From positions 1,424 through 65,423 of IMG/VR virus record IMGVR_UViG_3300043499_000197: a DNA stretch of 64,000 bases. One strand, 5' to 3'. The notes beneath the pieces are model-generated. The model did not search any database and had not been told where the DNA came from. It was given only the letters and a program-made list of their open reading frames with translations. The position numbers and the translations under genes were made by a program. The stretch is from a virus (Duplodnaviria; Caudoviricetes). Within the stretch, counting starts at the first letter, position 1, and every line of letters starts with the position of its first letter. This document shows, piece by piece, positions 3,639 through 48,522 of the stretch.

Positions 3639-5204
3639 ATGGGCTTCGCAGCAGGACTCAAGCAAGGCAGCGGCCTCGTGCAATCGGTGCTGGACAACGA
3701 GCGCCAAGCCGTGCTCGATGCGCGCGCCGCGGAAGAGTACGACTACAAGAAGGGCGAGCGCGAGCGCGTGAATCAGGCTTGGGGTGGCGTCGGCAAATTC
3801 GGACGCGAAGGCCCGGCTTCTTCGACCGCGATCCCGGAAGATTACCTGACACCCGAAGAGCGCGCCGTGCCGAAGCCCGCTGGTGGACTGGCGCCTCCTG
3901 CGCCCGCGGGTGGAATTGCGCCTCCCGCTGCGGGCCTCGCGCCCCCGGCTGCTGGCCTTGCACCTCCTGCTGCGCCGGCTGGCGGACTCGCGCCCCCTGC
4001 TGCACCTGCTGCTGGCCTGGCACCTCCTGCTGCCCCTGCCCCCGCCGCGGCCCCTGCTGCGCCGGCAACCTCGGAAGCGATGCAGCATGCGCGCGAGATG
4101 TTCAACGTGGCTGTCGCCAGCCGGGATGCGAACGCGGTGACGCAGGCCCGTACGAACATCGAAGCGGTAGACCAGCGCGAGATCCTGGGCAAGGTCGGCA
4201 AGATGACCCCCAAGGAGATTTCCACCTACGTGCAGCAGCATGCCAACCTGACGGACGGCCTGAAGATGTCCATCGCCGAGGCCGGCCCCGGCAAGTATCG
4301 GCTCACGACCTGGGGCAAGGACGGCATCGGGAAGGAGACGCTGCTCAACGGCGCACAGGCCCAGCAGTTGGCTGCTTCGCACATGCTGATGGAGAAGTAC
4401 CCCGACAAGGGCATGGCGATGGCCGCTGGCGTGCACAAAGACCTCGACGCGATGGTCAAGGAACACAACGCCGAGATGCTGGCCCAGAACACGCAGGCCA
4501 ACACCGCCGTCCACAACTTCGACACCCAGCAGGAGACCGGGCGCCACAACCGGGCGGCCGAAGGCAACGCAGCAGCCAACACGGCGATCTCGCGCGAGCG
4601 TCTCGGGCTGGAAAGGGACAAGGCCACAGACGCCAAGAAGGACAGCAAGCTGGCGAGCATGGACATCGTGGCTTCCAACAAGGATGGCTACGTGCTGATG
4701 AACAAGCGCGGCGAGCGTGAGTTCGTGCAGTACCCCGAGGGCGTGACCCAGCAGGACTTCGTCAAGAAGTACATGCCGCAGGGCGACACGGCGCCCAAGA
4801 TCAACGCGGACGGCAGCGCTACTTTCAGGGGCGATCTCTACGAGAAGGACCCGAAGACCAACAAGTGGACCAAGGCCGAAGGGTTCGGGCCGTCTGCGAT
4901 CGAAACCAAGTTCGATACCCTGATCAGCGGCAAGAACAAGCCCGGCGCAGCCAAGCCCGATGCGGCCAAGACTGCACTAGAGGCTGGGCCGCCGCGCACC
5001 GCCATGAACCCGCCGCCCAACGCCCGGCAGGAGTTGGCCGAGCGTGCACAGAAAGAAGTCCAGGCCAAGACGGACCCGGAACTCGCCGCGCTGATGCAGC
5101 AGTACAACCAAGCCAGTGGCCGGCAAGCCGTCACCATTGGCCAGCAGATCAGGCAGATGCGCATGGAGCGCTACGGACTGGAATCGAGCCCGCTCGGCTT
5201 GTAA
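3639..5204 (+). CDS. Internal virion/ejection protein with Pro/Ala repeat
   Basis: AGGAG SD; MGFAAGLKQG start; ETGRHNRA motif seen in podovirus ejection proteins. Confidence 0.7.
   Translation: MGFAAGLKQGSGLVQSVLDNERQAVLDARAAEEYDYKKGERERVNQAWGGVGKFGREGPASSTAIPEDYLTPEERAVPKPAGGLAPPAPAGGIAPPAAGLAPPAAGLAPPAAPAGGLAPPAAPAAGLAPPAAPAPAAAPAAPATSEAMQHAREMFNVAVASRDANAVTQARTNIEAVDQREILGKVGKMTPKEISTYVQQHANLTDGLKMSIAEAGPGKYRLTTWGKDGIGKETLLNGAQAQQLAASHMLMEKYPDKGMAMAAGVHKDLDAMVKEHNAEMLAQNTQANTAVHNFDTQQETGRHNRAAEGNAAANTAISRERLGLERDKATDAKKDSKLASMDIVASNKDGYVLMNKRGEREFVQYPEGVTQQDFVKKYMPQGDTAPKINADGSATFRGDLYEKDPKTNKWTKAEGFGPSAIETKFDTLISGKNKPGAAKPDAAKTALEAGPPRTAMNPPPNARQELAERAQKEVQAKTDPELAALMQQYNQASGRQAVTIGQQIRQMRMERYGLESSPLGL
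3879..4065 (+). repeat. Six in-frame G(L/I)APPA peptide repeats
   Basis: GGLAPPAP AGGIAPPA AGLAPPA AGLAPPAAP AGGLAPPAAP AAGLAPPAAP; codons differ between copies. Confidence 0.85.
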
Positions 5205-5213
5205 AGGATCGAC

Positions 5214-8200
5214 ATGGCCCTGCTAGACAAGATGCGCCAGCACTATGGCGCGGACCTGTCCGACGAAGAGATCATCACCCGCGCGTCCAAGGACCTGGAC
5301 GTGCCTGTCACGGACATGGCCAAGGAGGTCGGCTACAAGACCGGCGGCAAGTGGGGCAGCGCGGCCAGCGGGGCCGTGGACACCATGCAGTCGCAGGCCT
5401 GGGATGCTGGCGAAGCGGCGGCGCAGGGGTTGGGCTGGGAGGGTGTAGCCAAGTATGCCAAGGGCAAGCGCAAGCAGAACGAAGCGTCTGCCGAGATCGC
5501 GGGCGCCGCCGCCGAAGCGCAGGGCCTCACTACCGACTGGCGTGGCATTCGAGGCGCGGGCGACGTGGGCGAGTTCGTCGGCAGCACGGCGATCGGCTCG
5601 GCGCCGCAGATGGGGGTCGGGCTGGCCGGTGCTGCGGCCGGTGCGGCCATCGGCTCGGTGGTCCCCGTCGTCGGCACCGCCGTGGGCGGCGCGGCGGGCT
5701 ACGCCCTGTCGCAGTTGCCGCTGTACTTCGGCGCCAACCGGCAGGCGCAGCGCGAGCAGACCAAGGACCTGCTGGGCGGCGAGCGGGTGGACGACACCTC
5801 CGCGCTGCTGGCGGCGGGGGGCCAGACGGCGTTGGACATGTTCGGTGGTCCGGTGGGCAGTGCTGTGCGGCGCGGCGGCACGGCGATCGGCCGCAAGCTG
5901 GGACGCGAGGTGCTCAAGGAAGAGGCCGAAGAGGTGGCCGAGACTGGCGCGAAGAAGGCAGGGCGCTCCACGTTCTCGCCTTTGGCGATGGCCAAGGACT
6001 TCGCGGTCGGCGGTATCAAGGAAGGGGCGTACTCCGAGATACCGCAGCAGGTGCTGGAAGAGTACGCGCGCGGTGCCGTGGATTCGAGTCACGACCTGCT
6101 GGGCTCGGAAGCGCAGGGACGCTACATCGGCGCGGCAGCCGGTGCGCTGGCGCTGGGCGGCCCGGTGAACGCCGTGACCGGTGCCATGGGGCGCGCGAAA
6201 GCCAACTCGCGCAGCGACTACGATCCCACCGCTTCCAAGACCGAGGCGCCGGCGACGGTGGCGGGCTCCAAGAATGCACCGGCCGCAGGGCTGACGCCCG
6301 AGATGGTGGGTCCGCCGCGCGAGATGGTCGGACCCACGCGCGCCATGCCCGACGATTCCATCGTGGCGGCGCAGGCTGCAGGGACGGTGAAAGAGGTGCT
6401 CGGAACTCCGTCCGAAGCCAGGATCGACGCGAACGCGCCGCCGGCACCGCCGACACCCGAGCAGACGGCGGCCGACAAACGCGCAGCCGGCATCGCGAGC
6501 GAGAAGGCAGCCCTGGCCGCGCGCAGCGAGAAGGCAGCGGCCGATGGTGTCGATCCGAAGTACGTGCTGGAACACGCGGCGCTGGAGGGTGCGCTGAGCG
6601 AAGGCTTGATCAGCGAGGCCGAGGAGCAGCGGGCCGTGGCAGCGCTGGCGACGGGCGAGCCGGCCCTGGTGGCCGAGACCAAGAAGCTGGTGGCCGAGAT
6701 CGAGAAGGAACACGCCACCCGCCAGCAAGCGCCTGTCCCGAAAGTGGCGGGCCTGTCGCCGGGCCGCAGCGCCCTGGCCGCGTTCACCCACAAGGAGACC
6801 GGCAAGCCGATGTCCGAGCAGGCGCGCGACCGTGCCTACCTGATCCTGGGCCTGGACGAAGAGGGCCACCCGGTGGGCGACCCGCTGACGCTGCAGGACG
6901 TGGCCGAGATCGAGCACCGCGTGCAAGGCAAGACGGGTCCGGTGCCCGACAACAAGAAAGCCTTGAAGGCCATCAGCAAGCAACTCAACGAGTTCGGCCT
7001 GGACGCGGAGGCTCGCCGTGCGCTGTACAAGCAGATCCACGGCGAGGACATGCCGCTCGAAGGCAACGTCACTGCCGAAGGCGACGCGGCGCTGCAGGAG
7101 GGCGAGGAGGTCGAGGTCGAGCCGGAGCACCGGGACCGTGTCACCGACAGCGACGAGTCCGAACTGCAAGGCGCCATCGGAACGCACGACACGCGGATCG
7201 GCGCGGAGGATGTGGGCGACACCGGCTCCATGCGTCTGGTGGGCAGCGCCAACCAGAACGTGGCCGTCGAGGAAATCACCAGCGAGCAGCGCGCCGACGT
7301 GCTCAGCAGCCTGATCGCCGGGCCGGGCTACAACGATGCGCAAAAGGAAGCCTTCAAGCAGGCACTGGGCAGCGGCAAGACGCTGGGCAGCGAAGCCGGC
7401 GCGAAGAAGCTGCTGGCCGACACGGCCAACTTCAACGAGGATGAACTCAAGGCGCTGGGGGTCCTGTTCGAGCACGGCAAGACCACCAAGGCGGCAGCCG
7501 GCCGGCGTGCCCGCGTGGAAGCCGTGGTTGCCCGGCTGACCGGCGAGATGACCGAGCACGAGCGGCAGGTGCGCGAGCGCCAACAGGCGGCGAACAATGC
7601 GCGGCTGGCCCAGGAAGAGTTGAAGCGTGCCGAACTCAAGGCCCAGCAGGAAGGCGGCCTGGAAGACCTGGATGCGCGCCTGGACGAGGACGGCCGCACG
7701 CTGCGCATGCACCTGATGCTGAAAACGGGCGAGTTCGAGACGGCCGAAGAGCGCGAAGAGCGCCGGGCTGCAGGCCGCATGTCCCGGCAAGAGCGCTTGA
7801 TCGGCGAGTCGCTGGCAGATGCCAAGGCGACCTACGCGCGACTGTTCGCGGACCATGCCAAGGAGAAAGACCCGAACGACCACCTGCCGCCGTGGGATGA
7901 ACTCACGCCGCGCGAGCAGGCGGCGTTCGTACGCATGGTGGACTACCAGAACTTCGAGAGCCGGGACCCTGAGCACGTCGCGCAGGGCAAGATCGCCGGC
8001 AAGGCGTACGAAGCGCAGGAGGGCCATGCCCAGCGCACGGCCGCCGCCAAGCGCGAAGCCGAGAAGGCGGTCGCCAAAGCGATGCCTGAGTTCCAGGCCG
8101 AAGTGAAGAAGACCTACGAGGCCGAGACCCAAGCCGAGACCCAGCGCATCATCGAAGAGTCAAAGGCCCGCTCGCAGCAGCGCAAGGAAAAGCTCACGCT

Positions 8201-11200
8201 CAAGGCCAAGCCGAAGGCCGAGCCCCCGGCTGCACCCGCGCCGGCCCCCCAGGAGAAACCCAGTGGCCAACAAGCAAGTCCCGAAAGTGTCAGTCCCCCG
8301 AAGCCCGAGCCCGTCGAAGCTAAAGCCGCCCCGCGAGTCCATCGACGAGCAAGTAAGCCGGCTGTCCAAGCAGTGGTCGGAGGCGGAACTGCAACTGCTG
8401 GAAAAGAAGTATCCAAAGGCAGTGCACGCGGTGCGCCTGACGCAACTGCAAGAGCGCCACATGGACCCGGACCAGTTCGCGGTGAGGATGGCCAAGCTGC
8501 GCCAGCCGCCAGCACCGAAGGGGACCGTGCCGATGTAGCTGCAGACGACGGCTTCTGGGACCGTGCCGGCCCTACGGGGCCGACCGAAGAAGAGCAAGCG
8601 CGTGCCGTGCTGGGCGATGTGCCGATGGAGCGCGAGTACGACGAGAACACCAGTTGGTCGGCGGTCATCCCGCTGCAGAAGAAAGAGAAGCAGGCCGAAG
8701 ACGACGTGATGGTCGGCGCCGGCAACAACTGGATTCCGTTCGAGAAGGCCAAGGAACTGGCGGCCAAGTACCTGAGCGCGCGCCAGTTGAAGATGCCGTT
8801 CCAGTACCAGCACATGCTGGGCATCGCGGCGCGCGACTGGGAGCGCATGATCCAGGCGATGACCGGCCTGACGACCCGGGAAGCACTGGAGGGCAAGGCG
8901 GCCGTCGCACCGGCGGCCAAGGAATCGGAGTATGCCGCTGCGGCTTCGTCGTTCATGGAAGACAACTCGTCGGTCGAGCCGGACGACTTCGCCGACCCGG
9001 TGAAGCTGGAAAACGGCAAGTACATGAACGCGCCCGATCTGGCGCAAGCGGTCGTCCTGTCGCTGCCGGCCGAGGAGCACACCGACCCTGATGCCTACGC
9101 CAAGCTGGGCATCCTGCCCGAGGGCCGCGCCGAGGTGCTGAGCGCGGTGAACGAGTTGCTGGCATCGCCGCAGTTCCAGAACGTCGAGCGGCTGAACGCG
9201 GCGCGCGACGAGTCGCCGGCCCCACTGACCGTCACGGCGTCCGCCGGCACGCAAGTCGAAGGGGGCGTTCCTCGCGCCCCTTCCGTGACGCGGGTGGTGA
9301 GGAGGGCGCGCACCGGGCTCGACGAGGGCACGCTGACGCCGGAACAGTTCGCTGCCCAGGCCACGGCCGCGCTCGATGCGGCCGACGCGGCGCGCGAGAG
9401 CAAGCCGCGCGTGGGCAAGCTGCGCGGCGCCGACCGCATCATGGAGATGCTGCTGGCCGCGCGCCGGCGCGGCGAACTCGATGCCGAAGGTGTCGAGATG
9501 GCGATGTGGTTCATCCGCCAGAACCCGGCCGCGGTGGACAACCTGGGCATCAGCATCCGCGCGGCCGGCGAGAACGAGGCGGGCACCTCGGGCTACTACA
9601 ACCCGGTGGCCCGGATCGTCACGCTGATCAAGGGCTCGCTCAACACCGAGACCGCGGTGCACGAGATCCTGCACCACCTCGAACGCATGATGCCGCGCAA
9701 CCTGCAGAACGCCATCCGGCGCACCTGGGCCAAGAGCTTGGCCAAGGCCTACAAGGCGGCGCAGAAGGCCGGCAACGAGAACCTCACCGCTTATTACAAA
9801 GCGCTGATGGACTACCACTTCGACAACGGCCGGACTGCGCTGCTGGACAAGGCGCTGGACATGCTGCACTCGGGGGCCGTGGGCTACGAGCACTACCAGC
9901 ACTTCAACCCGAGCGAGTTTTGGGCCATCAACGGCAGCCGCATCGTGGCCGGGCGCTTCGGCGTCTCGGGCTCGGTCGTCGGGCGCATCCGCCAGTACCT
10001 GGGCGAGTTCGTGCAGAAGGTGAAGTCGGTGCTGGGCCTGAAGTCGGACGCTTCGATCATCCGTGCGCTCAACTCGGTGGCCCGCGCGGACGGCACCTTC
10101 ACCAGCGGCCTGATGCTGCAGGACCAGCCCGGCGTGCACTTCATGTACGCGGGCCAGAAGACCGCCGACCAGGAGCAACTTAACCAACTGAACCGCTACC
10201 ACTGGATGCGCGCGACGGGCGAGACCACGGCCGCGCAGGCGCGGGTGGCCACCGGGTGGTTCCGCAACCCGATCGACGGCGAGATGCGCTACGAGATCGC
10301 CGACCACGATGCCGAGTTCACCACGGCGCGCCCGCCCGAGCGCATGGTGCTCACGCAGCGCGGCCAGAAGCCGGTCACCTACCGGCTGGACGAGGTGCTG
10401 ATCCATCCGGCGCTGTTCGAAGCCTACCCGGAGGCGCGCCAGATCCTGGTGTCGCGCCAGGACGATCCGAACCCGACGGTGCAGGGCTGGTTCAACCCGG
10501 ACCAGAACATGGTGGTCTTCACGCCGCGCGCGGACAACCCGCTGTCCACGCTGGTGCACGAACTGCAGCACTGGGTGCAAACCCAGGAAGGTTTCGCGGT
10601 GGGCGGCTCGCCCGAAGAGGTGACGCACGCCATGAGCCCGGAGCAGCGCGTGCGCCTGTACCTGCGCGCCAGTGCCGAGATGGCCAAGCCCGGCTACCAG
10701 TCGCACCTGGAGGAATCCGACCGCCAGCGCCTGGAGATCCTGCTGGCCGGCAACCTGGAGCCCGACCCCGATGCGCTGGCACTGTATGCGGCCGGCACCG
10801 CGGCGCTGCAGCGCGCCTACCTGCACATCGCCGGCGAGATCGAGGCGCGCGACACGCAGGCCCGCCTGCAGATGACGCCCACGCAGCGCGACGAGACCAC
10901 ACCGCTCACCAGCGAGAAGATCGGCCTGAAGGATGTGGTGACGATCCGGGGCGCTGCGGGGACAGCGAAGTCGGTGGAGGGTGGTGTCTCGCGGCGCAAC
11001 GTGCTGCTGGGCGCGCTCGCCTCGGCGGCTGGGGTGCGGGCCAACGCGGCCACCGACACGCTCGTGCAGGGGAAAGCCCAGCCCATCAACCCCCAGTCGT
11101 GGGGTGCCAAGATCTCGCCGGCGGCGGAAAAGCTGCTGCGGGCGGGCGACCTGCGTGGCGCTATTGCGCAGATCGCCGAAGGGGCTCGCGACCCACGCAT

Positions 11201-14200
11201 CGCGCAACTGGCCACCCAGATCTATCTCAAGATGGGCGAGGGCAACGGCAAGCTGAAGACGCGCGTGGACGACAAGGGCGGCAGCGCCAACCACGCGGAG
11301 GTGAAGATCACGCCGCAGGGGCCGACCGCCACCTTCTACACGGCCAAGGGAGCGCGCGGCCTGTCCACCGACACCGTGCTGCACGAGGCGCTGCACGTGG
11401 TCTCGCTGTCGGCTTACTACGACGTGACGGCCGCGGCCAAGGCCGGCAACGCGGCGGCGACCAAGGCCGTGAGCGAGATGTACGGCTTGTGGAACGAGTT
11501 CGAGACCGCGGCGCAGAAGGCCGGCATGGGCAAGGGGCTAGACCTGGAGACGCGCAGTTCGATCCGGGAGTCGATCGAGAGCATGGACGAGTTTTTCGTG
11601 CGCGCGCTCACCGACCCGGCGCTGCAGAAGTTCATGGCCACCGTCCCCTACGAGGGCAAGACGCTGTGGGACCACTTCAAGGACTGGGTGCGCAAGACGC
11701 TCACCGGCAAAGCCGGCATCCAACCCAGTTGGCTGGACGCGGCCACGCTGGGCTCCGAGCGTTTCCTCGAAGCGCAAGGCCCGCAGATGGCTGCGTGGCA
11801 CCAGCAGGCCATGGGCGGCGCCAAGCAACTCAACTCGGCCCGCGCACAGAATATCGAGGCGGTCAGGCGGGCGGCGGTGGAGCGCGTGCCGGCACGGGCG
11901 CGCCCGGCCGTGGACACCATGAGCCGCATGATCGGCAACTCCACCAAGAGCCTGATCAAGGGCCTCACCTTCACGCGCGACCTGCTGCAGATGGCCGAGC
12001 GCGGCCTGGGGCAGGCGGCTGCGGACTACCTGCGGCTGGAAGAAGGGCGCAACGCAACGAAGATCGCCCACCTGCATGCGGCCGACGTGGTCGTGGCCGC
12101 GCACAAGAAGCTGTCGGTGGCCGAGCGTGCCGGCGTCAACGCCTACCTGAAGAAGTCCACCATGGAAGCCAAGTGGGGCTACCGGCCGGACCACTTCAGT
12201 GCCGAAGACAAGGCCAAGGTGAAGGTGGACCCGGCGCTGGAAGCGATCTGGAAAAACACGCTGAACGACGCCCAGCGCGCGGTCGTGAAAGAGGTGTTCA
12301 AGCACGGCCACGAGACGCTGACGACGATGAAGACGCTGGTGAACCTGAACGTGGCCGCCGAGTTCCAGGCCGCCATCGCGCAGGCCCGCGCGGCCAACGA
12401 CGACAAGGGGGCCGACAAGCTGCAGGCCGACATGGACGACCAGTTGGCCCACTTCAAGACGCTGCTGGCGGTGGGCGAGTACCACCCGTACGCGCCGCTC
12501 AAGCGCTTCGGCAACCACGTGGTGGTCGGCAAGTCGCAGCGCTACATGGATGCCGAAGCGGCGCTCGAAGCCAACGCTGACGACAAGGCCGCGCGCAAGG
12601 CGCTGCGCGAGATGCAGTCCAACGCCGACCATTACTACGTGTCGATGCACGAGACCCAGCACGAGGCGCAGCAGGAGCGCGACCGCATCGCCGGGCAGTA
12701 CGACCAAGCCGACACGATGGAGAAGGACCGCGGCTACCTGAACGAGGTGGGCGGCAACCGGGGCATGATGGGCATGTTCCACCGGCTGCGCGGGCAGGCC
12801 GAGCGCGAGGGTGGCAACTTGGACAAGAAGGCCCAGCAGGCCACCGACCGCCTGCTGACCGACCTGTACCTGTCGCTGCTGTCGGAGACCAGCGCACGCC
12901 AGTCCGAGCGCGAGCGCAAGAACGTGGCCGGCGCCGACGAGGACATGATGCGGGCCTTCCATTCCAAGGGCCGCGCGGACGCCAACTTCCTCGCCTCGCT
13001 GGCCACCGGCGGCGCGATGCAGGACGCGCTCAATGCGATGGAGAAGGAAGCCGGGCGCAACGGCATGGTGAACGGCACCACGCGCGAAGAGCGCCATGCG
13101 CACTACAGGGAAATCCTGTCGCGCCACGTCATGGGCATGGACTACAAGCAGAGCCCGGCGGTGGATGCCGCGCTGAAAGCCTCCTCGGTCATGCAACTGC
13201 TGACCAACCCGGCCTACCACCTGACCAACCTGCTGCAGCCCTATGTCATGAGCGTGCCGACGCTGGCCGGGCGCTTCGGCATGGTGAAGTCGATGGGCGC
13301 GATGATGGCCGCGCACCGCGAACTGGGCGGGCGGCTGTTCAAGAACGGCGTCGATCATTCGTCGATCGAGGACCTGCCCAGCGATGTGCGCAAGGGCATC
13401 CAGGCGCTGATGGACAAGGGCCTGATCAACATGAGCCTGGACAGCGAGCACGGTGGCGAGTGGAACGAAGGCAAGCTGGGCAAGCCGATCGGCTGGCTGA
13501 AGCGCGTCTCCGAGCGCATCGAGGCGGTGAACCGGGTGGCCACGGGGGTGGCGGCGCTGCGGCTGGCAGACAAGGCCGGCCTGAGCGAGCAGGCGGCTGT
13601 TAACTACGCGGCCAAGATCATCTACGACACGCACGGCGACTACTCGGGCTTCAACACCCCCAGCCTGATGCGCGCTCCGGTGGCGCGCCTGATCACGCAG
13701 TACCGCAAGTTCCAGTTGATCCAGCTTCACAACTACACGCGCATGGTGCGCGACGGCTTCCTGCGTGCCGACCTGAGCAAGGAAGAGAAGTGGGTGGCCA
13801 GGAAGGCGCTGGCGTACAACCTCTCGACCATGTTCGCGCTCGGCGGGACCCTGGCGCTTCCCGGTGCGCAGGCCGTGGGTGCGATCCTGCGCGCCATCTT
13901 CGGCGATGACGACGAGCCCGACGATCCCGAACTGACGATGCGCAAGTACTTGGCCGACGCCGGGCTCGAAGGCATCTCCGACCTGCTGGTGAAAGGGGTG
14001 CCGGCGTGGCTGGGCGTGGATGTGTCGGGCCGGCTGGGTGCGGGCAACATCGCCTCGCTGTTCCCGTACGCCGACATCAGCGACAAGGGCAAGAGCAGTC
14101 TGGTCTCGCGCAAGGCGTTCGAGGCGTACGCGCTGGCGGCCACCGGCCCCTTCATCGGCGGGCTCGCGCCCAAGCTGGCGGACGGCTTGCACGACTGGTC

Positions 14201-14693
14201 CAACGGCGATCCATACAAGGGCACCGAGAAGCTGATGCCCAGCGGCCTGGGCAACATGCTCAAGGGAGCCCGCATCGCCACCCAGGGCGTGACGATGAAG
14301 AGCGGCGACACCGTGATGGACGCCGATCAGGTCGGCTTCCTGGCCGGACTGGGACAGGCCGTGGGCCTGCCGACCACCACCGTCACCGAGCGCGGCCAGC
14401 GCGGGCAGGCGCTGCGCAACATGGACCTGTTCTACAAGGACAAGGTGTCGCAGATCAAGCGCGAGTATGTGCAGGCGTACCGGGACGGCGACGCGGAGAA
14501 GCTGGCCGAGGCCCGTGCGGACTGGGCCGAGGTCGGCCAGCGCATGAAGGCGCACGACCTGCAGCCGCCCAAGGTGAGCGACCTCGTGAAGGCGCCGCAC
14601 GCGCAGGCGAAGAAGGACAAGAGCCTGATCGAAGGGGTGCAGACCAGCAAGCGCACGGCCGGCGCAGCGCGCCAGTTGGCCGAACTCTACTAA
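5214..14693 (+). CDS. Giant polyvalent internal virion protein (3159 aa): LPD23-like, three HExxH metallopeptidase-like motifs, PLxRFG and helical C-terminal domain
   Basis: TGWFRNPIDGEMRYEIAD (~10250); VHEILH (~9657), VHELQH (~10554), LHEALH (~11379); YAPLKRFG (~12490); last gene of ejection cluster. Confidence 0.85.
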   Translation: MALLDKMRQHYGADLSDEEIITRASKDLDVPVTDMAKEVGYKTGGKWGSAASGAVDTMQSQAWDAGEAAAQGLGWEGVAKYAKGKRKQNEASAEIAGAAAEAQGLTTDWRGIRGAGDVGEFVGSTAIGSAPQMGVGLAGAAAGAAIGSVVPVVGTAVGGAAGYALSQLPLYFGANRQAQREQTKDLLGGERVDDTSALLAAGGQTALDMFGGPVGSAVRRGGTAIGRKLGREVLKEEAEEVAETGAKKAGRSTFSPLAMAKDFAVGGIKEGAYSEIPQQVLEEYARGAVDSSHDLLGSEAQGRYIGAAAGALALGGPVNAVTGAMGRAKANSRSDYDPTASKTEAPATVAGSKNAPAAGLTPEMVGPPREMVGPTRAMPDDSIVAAQAAGTVKEVLGTPSEARIDANAPPAPPTPEQTAADKRAAGIASEKAALAARSEKAAADGVDPKYVLEHAALEGALSEGLISEAEEQRAVAALATGEPALVAETKKLVAEIEKEHATRQQAPVPKVAGLSPGRSALAAFTHKETGKPMSEQARDRAYLILGLDEEGHPVGDPLTLQDVAEIEHRVQGKTGPVPDNKKALKAISKQLNEFGLDAEARRALYKQIHGEDMPLEGNVTAEGDAALQEGEEVEVEPEHRDRVTDSDESELQGAIGTHDTRIGAEDVGDTGSMRLVGSANQNVAVEEITSEQRADVLSSLIAGPGYNDAQKEAFKQALGSGKTLGSEAGAKKLLADTANFNEDELKALGVLFEHGKTTKAAAGRRARVEAVVARLTGEMTEHERQVRERQQAANNARLAQEELKRAELKAQQEGGLEDLDARLDEDGRTLRMHLMLKTGEFETAEEREERRAAGRMSRQERLIGESLADAKATYARLFADHAKEKDPNDHLPPWDELTPREQAAFVRMVDYQNFESRDPEHVAQGKIAGKAYEAQEGHAQRTAAAKREAEKAVAKAMPEFQAEVKKTYEAETQAETQRIIEESKARSQQRKEKLTLKAKPKAEPPAAPAPAPQEKPSGQQASPESVSPPKPEPVEAKAAPRVHRRASKPAVQAVVGGGTATAGKEVSKGSARGAPDATARAPHGPGPVRGEDGQAAPAASTEGDRADVAADDGFWDRAGPTGPTEEEQARAVLGDVPMEREYDENTSWSAVIPLQKKEKQAEDDVMVGAGNNWIPFEKAKELAAKYLSARQLKMPFQYQHMLGIAARDWERMIQAMTGLTTREALEGKAAVAPAAKESEYAAAASSFMEDNSSVEPDDFADPVKLENGKYMNAPDLAQAVVLSLPAEEHTDPDAYAKLGILPEGRAEVLSAVNELLASPQFQNVERLNAARDESPAPLTVTASAGTQVEGGVPRAPSVTRVVRRARTGLDEGTLTPEQFAAQATAALDAADAARESKPRVGKLRGADRIMEMLLAARRRGELDAEGVEMAMWFIRQNPAAVDNLGISIRAAGENEAGTSGYYNPVARIVTLIKGSLNTETAVHEILHHLERMMPRNLQNAIRRTWAKSLAKAYKAAQKAGNENLTAYYKALMDYHFDNGRTALLDKALDMLHSGAVGYEHYQHFNPSEFWAINGSRIVAGRFGVSGSVVGRIRQYLGEFVQKVKSVLGLKSDASIIRALNSVARADGTFTSGLMLQDQPGVHFMYAGQKTADQEQLNQLNRYHWMRATGETTAAQARVATGWFRNPIDGEMRYEIADHDAEFTTARPPERMVLTQRGQKPVTYRLDEVLIHPALFEAYPEARQILVSRQDDPNPTVQGWFNPDQNMVVFTPRADNPLSTLVHELQHWVQTQEGFAVGGSPEEVTHAMSPEQRVRLYLRASAEMAKPGYQSHLEESDRQRLEILLAGNLEPDPDALALYAAGTAALQRAYLHIAGEIEARDTQARLQMTPTQRDETTPLTSEKIGLKDVVTIRGAAGTAKSVEGGVSRRNVLLGALASAAGVRANAATDTLVQGKAQPINPQSWGAKISPAAEKLLRAGDLRGAIAQIAEGARDPRIAQLATQIYLKMGEGNGKLKTRVDDKGGSANHAEVKITPQGPTATFYTAKGARGLSTDTVLHEALHVVSLSAYYDVTAAAKAGNAAATKAVSEMYGLWNEFETAAQKAGMGKGLDLETRSSIRESIESMDEFFVRALTDPALQKFMATVPYEGKTLWDHFKDWVRKTLTGKAGIQPSWLDAATLGSERFLEAQGPQMAAWHQQAMGGAKQLNSARAQNIEAVRRAAVERVPARARPAVDTMSRMIGNSTKSLIKGLTFTRDLLQMAERGLGQAAADYLRLEEGRNATKIAHLHAADVVVAAHKKLSVAERAGVNAYLKKSTMEAKWGYRPDHFSAEDKAKVKVDPALEAIWKNTLNDAQRAVVKEVFKHGHETLTTMKTLVNLNVAAEFQAAIAQARAANDDKGADKLQADMDDQLAHFKTLLAVGEYHPYAPLKRFGNHVVVGKSQRYMDAEAALEANADDKAARKALREMQSNADHYYVSMHETQHEAQQERDRIAGQYDQADTMEKDRGYLNEVGGNRGMMGMFHRLRGQAEREGGNLDKKAQQATDRLLTDLYLSLLSETSARQSERERKNVAGADEDMMRAFHSKGRADANFLASLATGGAMQDALNAMEKEAGRNGMVNGTTREERHAHYREILSRHVMGMDYKQSPAVDAALKASSVMQLLTNPAYHLTNLLQPYVMSVPTLAGRFGMVKSMGAMMAAHRELGGRLFKNGVDHSSIEDLPSDVRKGIQALMDKGLINMSLDSEHGGEWNEGKLGKPIGWLKRVSERIEAVNRVATGVAALRLADKAGLSEQAAVNYAAKIIYDTHGDYSGFNTPSLMRAPVARLITQYRKFQLIQLHNYTRMVRDGFLRADLSKEEKWVARKALAYNLSTMFALGGTLALPGAQAVGAILRAIFGDDDEPDDPELTMRKYLADAGLEGISDLLVKGVPAWLGVDVSGRLGAGNIASLFPYADISDKGKSSLVSRKAFEAYALAATGPFIGGLAPKLADGLHDWSNGDPYKGTEKLMPSGLGNMLKGARIATQGVTMKSGDTVMDADQVGFLAGLGQAVGLPTTTVTERGQRGQALRNMDLFYKDKVSQIKREYVQAYRDGDAEKLAEARADWAEVGQRMKAHDLQPPKVSDLVKAPHAQAKKDKSLIEGVQTSKRTAGAARQLAELY
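8263..8538 (+). CDS. Nested +1-frame small basic protein (91 aa) inside the giant gene
   Basis: AGGAG at 8251-8255, GTG start; GC3 bias switches to this frame over its length. Confidence 0.6.
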   Translation: MANKQVPKVSVPRSPSPSKLKPPRESIDEQVSRLSKQWSEAELQLLEKKYPKAVHAVRLTQLQERHMDPDQFAVRMAKLRQPPAPKGTVPM

Positions 14694-45778: not shown

Positions 45779-45853
45779 GCACGCTTCCGTGGCGCGCTCA
45801 GCGCCATAGCAAACGTGACGGCCCCAGCACCCAGCCCACACAGCCACACTAAG

Positions 45854-45884
45854 TAAACTAGTTTATATTGGGCCCCCCGTGCAA
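45854..45884 (-). promoter_or_regulatory. Leftward sigma70-like promoter TTGCAC-N18-TAGTTT with perfect palindrome TAAACTAGTTTA
   Basis: Minus strand TTGCACGGGGGGCCCAATATAAACTAGTTTACT. Confidence 0.6.
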
Positions 45885-45980
45885 ACCCTGCCTTTTATGC
45901 ACGTCACACTGCGCTATTAGAAAAGCGTGCCTGATAATCGCGTGCATCCCCGCGCCCGCTCACATCACCAGGAGATGCCC

Positions 45981-46124
45981 ATGGCCAGCGACGTCCCGCC
46001 CTTCGACAAGAAGAAGAAACCCGCCAAGGGGAAGATGCCGTTCCCGCCGGCCTCCAAGGCGGGAGGCCCGGCCCCCGACAAGGGCGGCAAGAAGCCCAAC
46101 CCGTTTGCCAAGAAAGGAGCCTGA
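45981..46124 (+). CDS. Small Lys/Pro-rich basic protein
   Basis: AGGAG SD; MASDVPPFDKKKK... Confidence 0.7.
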   Translation: MASDVPPFDKKKKPAKGKMPFPPASKAGGPAPDKGGKKPNPFAKKGA

Positions 46125-46126
46125 CC

Positions 46127-46291
46127 ATGGCCCGCAAATCAGGAACCCTCTCGATCCAGAAGAAGCCTTCCGTCCCTTCGGGCGGGCGCATGAACCCGAC
46201 CATGGACCAGAAGACGATGCCCAAGGTGCCGTTGCCGGCCAAGGGCAAGAGCAGCAAGGAATCGAGCACCCGGATGCCCGGGCCGAAGTGA
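46127..46291 (+). CDS. Small basic protein (54 aa)
   Basis: AAGGAG SD; MARKSGTLSIQKKP...; below ORF-track cutoff. Confidence 0.65.
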   Translation: MARKSGTLSIQKKPSVPSGGRMNPTMDQKTMPKVPLPAKGKSSKESSTRMPGPK

Positions 46292-46332
46292 CGCTGCGCT
46301 AACGCGCGCGAAGCGCGCTCCCCGGATCGCAG

Positions 46333-47079
46333 ATGTCCGACTACGGCCTCGTCCTCCCCGACCATGACCTGACCGCGGCCGACTTCAAGGAGTTGGCGCG
46401 CCGTGTCGGGCGTGCCGCCTTCATGCCGCTGTTCCTGCGCTACTACGAGCGGGTGGTGACGAGCGAGGCGACGATCGAGGAGCAGCGCCGCGGGCTGGTG
46501 GACATCGCCCGGTGGACGGGTGTCGAGGAAGAGAAGAAGAGCGACCCGAACGCCAACCTGCCGGTTTTCCAGATCATCTTCGGGCAGGCAGGCACCAGCG
46601 CGGCCAGCATCGAGGCGGTGGAGGTCATACAGCCGCCCACCCACGAGCCCTTGCCCACCCCTGACCCACGCGCACCTGACGCGCTATTAGACAGTGCGGC
46701 GGAACTGATTCCAGCGGACATGCTGAAATCGTTTGCTCACGACCTGGAAGAAGTGGCCCGGTCGGCGCAGCCGGCCGGATCACGCATGAAGGAAATAGCC
46801 GATGCCCAACCCCACGCCGCCCCATCCGCCGCTGCAGCACATGCAGACCCTCCCGCGCCTGTCGAACCCGGCCGATCCGCAGATCCACCGCCTGAGCCCG
46901 TTCGATCAGGCCCACCGGATTCCGGGCCACGGCTCGCAGCACACCGAGCGGGAATTGACTACGAGCGACCCCAAGGCTTACAACTTGCCCCCGCCGCCCC
47001 TGCCGAAACACGCGACGAGCCGGTAAGCCCCACCTTCACCCAGGCGCTGGCCGACCTGGACAGCCTGCTGGACATCTAA
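46333..47079 (+). CDS. Probable terminase small subunit
   Basis: Abuts TerL; helical N-terminus, PVFQIIF strand; assignment mainly positional. Confidence 0.55.
   Translation: MSDYGLVLPDHDLTAADFKELARRVGRAAFMPLFLRYYERVVTSEATIEEQRRGLVDIARWTGVEEEKKSDPNANLPVFQIIFGQAGTSAASIEAVEVIQPPTHEPLPTPDPRAPDALLDSAAELIPADMLKSFAHDLEEVARSAQPAGSRMKEIADAQPHAAPSAAAAHADPPAPVEPGRSADPPPEPVRSGPPDSGPRLAAHRAGIDYERPQGLQLAPAAPAETRDEPVSPTFTQALADLDSLLDI
46802..47026 (+). CDS. Nested +1-frame Pro/His-rich protein (74 aa) inside TerS
   Basis: AAGGA SD before ATG; GC3 bias moves to this frame. Confidence 0.5.
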   Translation: MPNPTPPHPPLQHMQTLPRLSNPADPQIHRLSPFDQAHRIPGHGSQHTERELTTSDPKAYNLPPPPLPKHATSR

Positions 47080-48522
47080 GTGCTCCGATATGACGCCAGC
47101 CCCACCGGCCAGCGCATGCTGGACTCCCGCAAGTTCGGCCAGTTGATCTGCGGGCCAGTCGGCGGCGGCAAGAGCACGGTGGCGCTCATGAACATGTTTC
47201 GCCGAAGTATCCGGCAGGCGGCGTTCGGCGGCATCCGGCACACCAAGCATCTGGTGCTGCGCAACACCATGGCGCAGTTGAAGAGCACCGTGAAGCCGAT
47301 GATGACCACGTGGTTCGACACCCTGGTGCTGCGCCGCATGGGCCAGTGGAAGCTCACCGACCAGATCTTCGAGGCCCGGTTCCGGCTGCCGGACAACACG
47401 GTCGTGCTGTCGGAATACCTGCTGATGGCCGCCGACACGCCGGACGACGTGCGCCGGCTCCTGTCCCTGGAAGTCTCCGATGCCTGGATCGAGGAGGGGC
47501 GCGAAGTCGAGGCCGATGTCGCCGAAGGCGTGTCGGGCCGGGTGAACCGGTTCCCGGCACGGGTAGCGGGGGGTGTCACGCAGCCCGGGGTGATCGTCAG
47601 CACCAACGCGCCGCCGATCGGCGGCTATTGGCACGGGCTGATGACCAAGCCGCCCCACACCTGGGAGATTTTCATGCAGCCGCCGGCGCTGCTGGACGAC
47701 GACACCTTGAACCCGAACGCCGAGAATCTCGAGAACCTCGCGCCCGATTACTACGAGAACATCGTGCAGGGCAAGAGCGACGAGTGGATCAACGTCTACC
47801 TGAAGAACAAGTTCGGCCAGGGCGACAGCGGCAAGCCCGTGTATCGGCAGAGCTTCAAGAAGAGCTTCCACGCCAGGAAGGGCCTGCGGCCCGTCATGCA
47901 GTCGGCGCCGATGGTGATCGGCATGGACAACGGGCTCACGGCCGCGGCGGCCTTCATGCAGCAGGACCCGAGAGGCCGGGTGAACGTGCTCAACGAATGC
48001 TACGTGCCGGACGGCCAGACCATGGGCGTCGAGTCGTTCCTGGACCGGCTGCTGATCCCGAAACTGGCGGCCGAGTACCCGGGCTTCCGGCGCGAGAACA
48101 TCATCTTCGCGATCGACCCGGCCTGCTTCCAGCGCTCGCAGATCGACGAGAAGACCATCAACGCGGCGATCCTGCAGCGCGGCTTCAAGACCTGGAAGCC
48201 GCCCACCAACGATCCCGAGCGGCGCATCCAGGCGGTCGAAGGCCTGCTGACGCGCGCCGTCGATGGCGGGCCGGGCTTCCAGTTCGACGAAGAGCGCTGC
48301 GGGCACGCGATCGCCACCCATGAATGGGGCTACCGCTGGCGTCGCAGCCCGGAAGGCATCGTCTCGACGCTGGTGGAGAAGAACTTCTGGAGCCACATGG
48401 GCGACGCGGTCCAGTACGGCGCGCTGTTCTACAACACCCATGGCGCGCTCACGGCCGGCACCCAGTTCACCGGGCGGGCGCCCTTGCGCAAGATAATCCC
48501 CGCACCCTACGCCTACACATAG
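47080..48522 (+). CDS. terL: Terminase large subunit
   Basis: GPVGGGKS Walker A, WIEE Walker B, STNAP, IGMDNG, IDPA, SHMGDAVQY nuclease motifs. Confidence 0.93.
   Translation: MLRYDASPTGQRMLDSRKFGQLICGPVGGGKSTVALMNMFRRSIRQAAFGGIRHTKHLVLRNTMAQLKSTVKPMMTTWFDTLVLRRMGQWKLTDQIFEARFRLPDNTVVLSEYLLMAADTPDDVRRLLSLEVSDAWIEEGREVEADVAEGVSGRVNRFPARVAGGVTQPGVIVSTNAPPIGGYWHGLMTKPPHTWEIFMQPPALLDDDTLNPNAENLENLAPDYYENIVQGKSDEWINVYLKNKFGQGDSGKPVYRQSFKKSFHARKGLRPVMQSAPMVIGMDNGLTAAAAFMQQDPRGRVNVLNECYVPDGQTMGVESFLDRLLIPKLAAEYPGFRRENIIFAIDPACFQRSQIDEKTINAAILQRGFKTWKPPTNDPERRIQAVEGLLTRAVDGGPGFQFDEERCGHAIATHEWGYRWRRSPEGIVSTLVEKNFWSHMGDAVQYGALFYNTHGALTAGTQFTGRAPLRKIIPAPYAYT

Follow-up and report, generated by a model that had tools for sequence, protein, structure and literature searches.

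In the 64,000-nt window analyzed here, which spans positions 1,424 to 65,423 of the IMG/VR virus record IMGVR_UViG_3300043499_000197 and hence nearly all of its 65,423 bases (GC 65%), a gene for a putative small terminase subunit (TerS) lies directly ahead of the gene for the large terminase subunit (TerL), and a second open reading frame (ORF) is nested in its distal part in the +1 frame (Table 1). The TerS-like stop codon (TAA at 47077-47079) abuts the GTG start of TerL at 47080. The nested ORF runs from an ATG at 46802 to a TAA at 47024-47026 and overlaps TerS residues 157-232. An earlier note on this DNA had claimed that AAGGA followed by ATG opens a 74-codon +1 ORF here, and these elements are present, with AAGGA at 46789-46793 as the Shine-Dalgarno (SD) sequence. 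At many gene starts of this phage AAGGA or AGGAG is located 5-9 nt ahead of ATG. Within 51,516 nt of genes there were seven internal sites with an SD sequence and ATG, four of which were true starts or starts of downstream genes, while three were out of frame and away from gene ends; the two of these other than the nested start open ORFs of 23 and 24 codons.

Table 1. Features of the terminase region, numbered from the first base of the window (GC3, GC content at third codon positions; dN/dS, ratio of nonsynonymous to synonymous substitution rates; aa, amino acids).
Feature	Position	Strand	Basis
Nested gene, 74 codons + TAA, +1 frame (very probable)	46802..47026	+	codon flip, homologues, dual-frame consistency, dN/dS
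Shine-Dalgarno AAGGA of nested gene	46789..46793	+	8-nt spacer to ATG; frame 0 reads conserved 'MKEIA' codons
Conserved core of nested protein, codons 15-41, QTLPRLSxPxDPQIHRxxPxDQxHRxP	46844..46924	+	alignment A5, codon table
TerS-like host gene (putative), 248 aa, frame 0	46333..47079	+	ORF list; 43 aligned relatives lie upstream of TerL
TerS-like conserved N-terminal domain, ~residues 1-110	46333..46662	+	frame-0 GC3 0.86-1.00
TerS-like C-terminal helix (predicted), residues 233-245	47029..47067	+	model; downstream of nested stop
TerL gene (large terminase, 480 aa)	47080..48522	+	phrog_2 terminase large subunit, E 8.8e-13

The coding character of the three frames was compared using a codon log-likelihood model trained on 43 genes of the phage. 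The data showed that over the nested ORF frame 0 scored -46.1 bits, the +1 frame +8.8 bits and the +2 frame -71.3 bits. The difference between the scores of the +1 frame and frame 0, S(+1)-S(0), was thus +55 bits, while the mean in 2,748 in-gene windows was -123 bits (standard deviation 36), and only 11 of these windows reached +55 bits, all of them at two other places (8229-8379 and 3849). The best frame in 60-nt windows was frame 0 throughout the N-terminal domain of TerS, changed to +1 at 46798 and reverted to frame 0 at 46978, in agreement with the nested start and stop, and the frame-0 codon bias of TerS returned for the last 17 codons. The GC content by codon position over the nested ORF was 0.67/0.52/0.88 in the +1 frame, as compared to about 0.65/0.46/0.88 in the genes of the phage. 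For frame 0 (46801-47025) it was 0.89/0.67/0.52, the codon CGA was used four times, TTA, TCA and GTT were also present, and 20 of the 36 codons for residues other than Ala, Pro and Gly ended in A or T (hand count). These values bear out what the earlier note had said about codon usage, namely that the +1 frame uses genome-typical codons, while the TerS frame uses rare ones and recovers for a final helix.

The 74-residue nested product was compared by phmmer, with no length limit, against 1.84 billion (1.84e9) protein representatives. The search gave two matches, which were P0001 (86 residues, E 1.9e-6) and an unrelated repeat protein. P0001 is identical to the nested protein at 27/41 of residues 1-41 (BLASTP, pairwise E 2e-16), and P0003 (91 residues), which was reached via P0001, is identical to it at 28/41. 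The starts of both proteins had been put by gene callers at the homologous ATG, and the conservation extends from Met1-Pro2 onward. The last 17 residues of P0003 are the +1 translation of the DNA of a related locus, L007, ending at TAG. The window's own nested protein is found in no protein database, and its only two relatives ever called are both on short contigs. These matches place the +1 product in a conserved family of small proteins, together with P0001, P0003, the product of the related locus L001 and the L007 fragment.

The layout of the locus was also compared among 22 TerS proteins of 196-265 residues with long linkers (those of the window and of L001 included), which have well-conserved N-terminal domains and wildly different linkers. 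Dynamic programming showed that the +1 frame of the TerS homologue P0022 could encode P0001 with 85/85 host residues matched, as compared to 27-58 for other TerS proteins, which indicates that an independent lineage shares the gene-in-gene layout. The DNA of this lineage was rebuilt from P0001 and P0022, and in codons 1-41 it differed from the window at 10, 10 and 21 sites in the first, second and third +1 codon positions, respectively. The amino-acid identity between the two lineages was 27/41 in the +1 frame versus 13/41 in frame 0, and the dN/dS values obtained by the Nei-Gojobori method with the rebuilt DNA of these 41 codons were 0.27 for the +1 frame, 2.25 for frame 0 and 1.49 for the +2 frame. 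In Fisher tests the excess of synonymous changes in the +1 frame had a p value of 0.0017 and the contrast in identity one of 0.0038, while the position test gave a p value of 0.052. In codons 15-30, 15/16 residues are identical in the +1 frame, ten of them with changed codons, including a serine codon switched from TCG to AGC. The 27-residue +1 core could be encoded at 22-27/27 positions in 8 of the 22 long-linker TerS relatives, the frame-0 peptides of which are very different, while 220 shuffled linkers gave a mean of 15.4 (standard deviation 1.2) and a maximum of 19.

The related loci were gathered on the basis of TerL relatives with 49-98% identity. In L001, with a TerS 87% identical to that of the window, the nested ORF is kept at 74 codons and without an indel. 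The SD sequence and start are kept as AAGGAG-N7-ATG in L001 and as AAGGAG-N7-GTG in another locus, L003, and the nearest +1 stop lies one codon upstream of the nested start in the window and four codons upstream of it in both L001 and L003. By hand count, 4/7 substitution events between the window and L001 are synonymous in the +1 frame and 2/7 in frame 0, and the Nei-Gojobori dN/dS values, which depend on only 9 differences, are 0.32 in the +1 frame versus 1.05 in frame 0. L001 (at 2440-2470) and a 3.7-kb contig of run X4 have in common a 42-nt net deletion in TerS at window positions 46730-46789, through which TerS loses about 14 residues just ahead of the nested SD sequence, with AAGGAG-N7-ATG left untouched. 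An exact 20-nt pattern from the nested ORF matched the contig of L001 only.

L003 (TerL 84% identical; 253 nt upstream of it covered) has a 58-codon +1 ORF at the homologous place, with S(+1) of +15.4 versus S(0) of -30.0, and its codon flip ends at its stop, just before the C-terminal helix. This ORF can be considered a positional analogue, and possibly a divergent homologue, of the nested ORF. Many of the frame-0 linkers of P0006-P0025 share, as judged by eye, the peptides PRRRPVARERA, ERPQAL and (V/L)xDGxP near the linker end, and the first two correspond to the conserved +1 peptides NQDAAQSHGSA and SDPKxY, which hints that the L003-type nested gene may also have spread among lineages. In L007 (TerL 80% identical; 161 nt upstream covered) the last 17 codons of the +1 ORF are seen, after which the frame-0 bias is regained. 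Further, 41 more distant loci were examined, with 17 duplicate, truncated or otherwise redundant ones left out (L002, L005, L012, L015, L016, L018, L019, L021, L026, L027, L029, L038, L045, L046, L051, L052 and L054), and no coding-like +1 ORF was found in the TerS linker of those examined; the apparent exceptions were L020, where the ORF is the upstream gene, and L024, where it is a weak ORF of 49 codons. L063, the sole locus matched by P0001, was rejected as a spurious 16-residue match inside a 478-residue ORF.

Contigs from three other studies also cover the nested ORF without gaps, and there are no indels within 46789-47198 either in L001 or in these contigs; the differences listed from other contigs include at least one variant inside the nested ORF (46947 A>C). 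Because independent contigs cover the ORF without gaps, the compensating assembly indels that the earlier note had named as a possible source of the frame bias are excluded. Its proposal of an overprinted gene inside a putative TerS was borne out by the homologue family, by the mainly synonymous changes in the +1 frame and by the SD sequence and start kept in L001 and L003, and the conservation of both frames, which it had named as a check, proved to be unequal, with the +1 frame constrained (dN/dS 0.27) and frame 0 not (2.25).

To place the nested ORF within the host protein, we considered what is known about the latter from its relatives and from a structural model. The synteny and the stop-start abutment with TerL favor its assignment as a putative TerS, and the same synteny is also seen in relatives whose upstream gene belongs to the TerS-like family. 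Searches of Pfam, PHROG and NCBIfam gave no match to a curated TerS family, a profile of the 43 TerS-like relatives found nothing among PDB sequences at E up to 1, and Foldseek with the model found nothing at E <=0.001. The model predicts coil in residues 1-14, a confident amphipathic helical hairpin in residues 15-62, helices in residues 115-145, and no N-terminal transmembrane helix. In a fold comparison by VIA-align against 48,161 chains the best match of the hairpin, and the sole chain with Z >=5, was the NV1 small terminase (PDB 7joq; Z 5.8, root-mean-square deviation 3.0, 62 residues), with a weak Z value of a kind common among generic helical hairpins. Residues 146-232 are predicted to have no secondary structure (predicted local distance difference test, pLDDT, ~45-56), which is in line with the disorder that the earlier note had assumed for the overlapped part, while the C-terminal helix was modeled with block-mean pLDDT values of 79-86. 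The N-terminal domain is the conserved part across the 22 long-linker relatives and in the family alignments A4/A6, in which the LDxLL motif of the C-terminal helix is also nearly invariant. The patch 46560-46660, between the N-terminal domain and the helices, is hypervariable: lineages differ in it by many substitutions and by several indels of 1-2 nt, after which the frame is restored within a few codons. The 21 distant members of the TerS-like family (113-170 residues; alignment of 23) are without the ~85-100 residues that hold the nested ORF. These data show that the overlapped segment is a clade-specific insertion of ~85-100 residues, predicted to be disordered, between the N-terminal domain and the C-terminal helix.

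The nested protein, which starts with MPNPTPPHPP, contains 17 Pro, 7 His and no Cys among its 74 residues and has a net charge of about +2. It has no hydrophobic stretch, signal peptide or lipobox, and it was modeled without secondary structure. Its N-terminal 41 residues are conserved, while its tail is variable and basic. The ESM Atlas gave no usable match, and a protein homologue search at near lengths gave 0 candidates. A modeled complex of the nested protein with TerL obtained a score of 0.00, which counts neither for nor against an interaction. We infer that the product is a linear-motif protein made late together with the packaging genes. It would be a rather doubtful guess that the N-terminal 41-residue module is a linear motif which docks on a folded partner required late in infection, either in packaging or head assembly or as a target in the host; by the same guess, the tail, variable and basic, would be lineage-specific.

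Taken together, these comparisons make it very probable that 46802..47026 is a genuine, conserved gene whose protein is read in the +1 frame within the TerS-like gene. As judged from the substitution patterns, purifying selection maintains its product family in a number of related phages from soil and sediment, all uncultured, while the frame-0 reading of the same bases behaves as an unconstrained passenger. Ribosomes would start independently at 46333, for TerS, and at the internal AAGGA-N8-ATG, on one shared late mRNA, and the second initiation would give a 74-residue, Pro/His-rich disordered protein. TerS would tolerate the nested gene as the overlapped stretch may be just a flexible tether. 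The host frame reads the nested codons in the (3,1,2) register, and in this register 65.7% of 13,655 75-codon windows of the phage's genes are free of stops, versus 9.4% for the +1 register. Since the (3,1,2) register is mostly stop-free, the tether can house a GC3-rich gene at little cost, and the host frame may stay open almost for free, as such a gene would seldom meet a stop in it.

Several observations weigh against the embedded gene. The nested protein has no predicted fold (predicted template modeling score 0.15), its C-terminal half is poorly conserved, nested proteins had no family match in Pfam, PHROGs or NCBIfam, and no stand-alone homologue was found. The core was at the level of the shuffled linkers (14-19) in 14 of the 22 TerS relatives, and the L003 nested protein is without the core, with a BLASTP E value of 2.2 against the window protein and a marginal 0.037 against P0001. 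The dN/dS values for the window versus the P0001/P0022 lineage rest on 41 codons and on inferred DNA, in which 6/258 ambiguous positions were set to match the window. Among the listed sequencing runs that contain the stretch, none is on record as RNA. The other points are also those which favor a chance ORF, arising because an Ala/Pro/Gly/Arg-rich disordered linker forces a high GC content at the first and second frame-0 positions, so that there is no second protein. The +1 codon score is at just the 5th percentile of true gene frames, and the ORF length is unremarkable, as the 16,923 gene codons contain 16 further +1 ORFs that are 74 codons or longer. In addition, a Pro/Ala repeat elsewhere in the phage, at 3840-4064, mimics the compositional flip, with a frame-0 GC3 of 0.53, +56 bits toward the +1 frame and an implausible Leu/Arg-rich +1 product. 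Hence, composition alone is not proof, because this repeat flips similarly without a credible gene. However, a chance ORF leaves unexplained the 27/41 versus 13/41 identity and the dN/dS contrast across lineages, the switch of the serine codon, the compatibility of one +1 core with 8/22 divergent frame-0 linkers, and the conserved SD sequence and start; also the A- or T-ending codons among the 36 frame-0 codons not for Ala, Pro or Gly are an anomaly beyond Ala/Pro codon choice. Chance is therefore a highly improbable origin of the ORF, and one already largely refuted.

The conservation of the +1 peptide would be equally well explained if a programmed +1 frameshift made it the alternative C terminus of a TerS isoform, composed of the N-terminal domain and the +1 peptide. 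SD-like elements within coding sequences can promote a shift to the +1 frame, prfB being an example, and frameshift isoforms are known for phage morphogenetic genes. On the other hand, the positions of the +1 stops would confine the shift to the 1-4 codons before the nested start, where there is no in-frame stop and no codon that would obviously be slippery or hungry. The phage's initiation sites have the same SD spacing of 7-8 nt, the conservation begins with the initiator methionine, and the callers placed the P0001 and P0003 starts at the homologous ATG. Independent initiation is thus favored over frameshifting because in three lineages a +1 stop precedes the start by 1-4 codons, and a frameshift product can be regarded as quite improbable. 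The least credible origin is a relic of a compensated frameshift or of an assembly error, in which the +1 frame would be the old linker frame of TerS and the codon bias its fossil. Disordered linkers do tolerate frame changes, and the small indels between lineages in the neighboring patch 46560-46660 could be seen in this light. Yet the nested region and its flank (46789-47198) are free of indels in L001 and in the contigs of the three further studies, the passenger-like frame is the one read in all 22 TerS relatives, and the phmmer search at any length gave no protein in which the core and a TerS domain are joined in one frame. Moreover, a fossil would show neither purifying selection between lineages nor, in three of them, an SD sequence with a start and a stop where the flip begins and ends. 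The embedded gene, initiated at its own ATG, remains the preferred reading.

The earlier note had further suggested that this phage repeatedly nests small genes in disordered linkers of essential virion genes, and two other places in the window bear on this wider possibility. At 8263-8538 on the plus strand, inside the ORF 5214..14693, there is a 91-codon +1 ORF with an AGGAG-N7-GTG start and a helical-looking product. It shows the strongest codon flip in the window, with S(+1)-S(0) of up to +82 bits, and it is situated in an Ala/Pro/Gly-rich stretch of a giant DarB-like virion protein. This ORF thus has the same design with a stronger flip; on the other side, a sub-threshold match to DUF1798 was its only family match, and no relatives of it were found in viral contigs. 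The third place, 3840-4064 on the plus strand in the gene 3639..5204, consists of a tandem (G)GLAPPAA-type repeat written with GCT and CCT codons, and it was rejected as an overprinted gene, since the flip is a tandem-repeat artefact and its +1 product is junk rich in Leu and Arg. Scans for codon flips can use this repeat as a negative control.

The other genes of the window include those for a major head protein, a portal or adaptor protein, a DNA polymerase and a helicase, and the C-terminal part of a 3,159-residue protein matches giant 'DarB-like' virion proteins. Among isolated phages no close relative was found by blastn, which gave only ~100-nt TerL matches to Burkholderia podophages in five records, and tblastn with the TerS N-terminal domain and with the nested protein gave 0 matches. 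A scan of 45800-47300 found no promoter-like site and one weak terminator-like site, on the minus strand, and a repeat search of 46500-47150 found no flanking repeats marking an insertion. Just upstream of TerS there are two small Lys/Pro-rich ORFs on the plus strand, at 45927-46124 (65 residues) and 46127-46291 (54 residues), neither of which had a family match. The second of them is identical in L001, the first has a similar 64-residue counterpart there, and a similar Lys/Pro/Gly-rich ORF is located at this position in L004. In the related contigs L017 (20-330), L018 and L019 the stop-free frame upstream of TerS is composed of long tandem ATTPLRHY/ATTPLRRY units, which indicates a probable tandem DNA repeat of ~24 nt beside the packaging genes.

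The embedded gene provides unusually clean evolutionary evidence for an embedded frame that is selected while the frame of its essential host gene is a passenger, and it indicates that some 100 additional residues, of essentially arbitrary sequence, can be accommodated in a terminase linker. Its products form a new family of small proteins rich in Pro and His, which share a conserved motif of 27-41 residues; the partner of this motif can now be sought. As gene callers forbid nested genes, small embedded phage genes go unannotated; a codon flip bounded by start and stop, combined with an internal ribosome-binding site and a dual-frame check between called proteins, offers a recipe for finding them in high-GC phages. 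We suggest tentatively, as a possibility less likely to be right than wrong, that in this phage clade the long, disordered linker of TerS serves as a cargo bay for embedded accessory genes. Different +1 genes may occupy one spot, among them the type with the QTLPRLS core (8/22), the core-less L003 type and perhaps others in the long linkers that remain. A GC3-rich gene dropped into a tolerant linker would stay stop-free in the (3,1,2) register about two times in three, and the phage may use the same trick in the giant virion protein (8263..8538). If this proposal is true, disordered linkers of essential virion genes would be a general and overlooked home of small moron-like genes in high-GC phages.

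The comparison with known systems begins with the host gene, which resembles those of small terminase subunits in that it lies just ahead of TerL and its stop abuts the TerL start; the predicted helical hairpin of its product has its best, though weak, structural match in NV1 (PDB 7joq), and the TerS-like protein also ends in a conserved short helix. It differs from them by the linker insertion of ~85-100 residues that carries a second gene, and a literature search, which did not cover supplements, found no report of a gene embedded in terS. The overprinted genes of small viruses, as described in the available text of two articles (PMC3744397, PMC8227390), are similar in that one DNA is read in two frames, one genome-typical and the other atypical and disorder-rich, while the nested gene differs by its location in a 65-kb double-stranded DNA phage genome without obvious size pressure. 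According to the same text, codon usage separates the ancestral from the novel overprinted frame (Pavesi et al. 2013, PMC3744397; review PMC8227390). By this criterion, as far as that text describes it, it is the +1 frame that looks 'ancestral', and the newcomer would be the reading of the TerS linker. Such codon usage would be expected if a gene had been inserted into the linker, or if selection had long acted on the +1 frame only, and less so after a classic de novo birth within an older gene.

The nested gene is of the embedded-gene kind, as is Rz1 in Rz of phage lambda. On the basis of the available part of the spanin article (PMC6139136), the two systems are similar in that a small proline-rich gene lies wholly within the +1 frame of a larger phage gene, in that it is located distally, and in that the host protein has a spacer which tolerates insertions. 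Embedded o-spanins are described there as typically starting at 0.4-0.5 and ending at 0.9-1 of the length of the host gene, while the nested gene occupies 0.63-0.94 of it. The o-spanin lipobox consensus given in this text is [LVI][ASTVI][GAS]C, and, in contrast to Rz1, the nested protein has neither Cys nor a signal peptide or lipobox. The host gene is also different, as Rz encodes an i-spanin of the inner membrane and an o-spanin gene would be expected in or beside such a gene of a lysis cassette, while the host of the nested gene is TerS-like and lies upstream of TerL. An o-spanin identity of the nested protein was rejected for these reasons. In the same partial source the shared DNA of Rz/Rz1 is said to serve both proteins, while at the TerS-like locus the host frame appears to be a passenger, as judged from its dN/dS value of 2.25.

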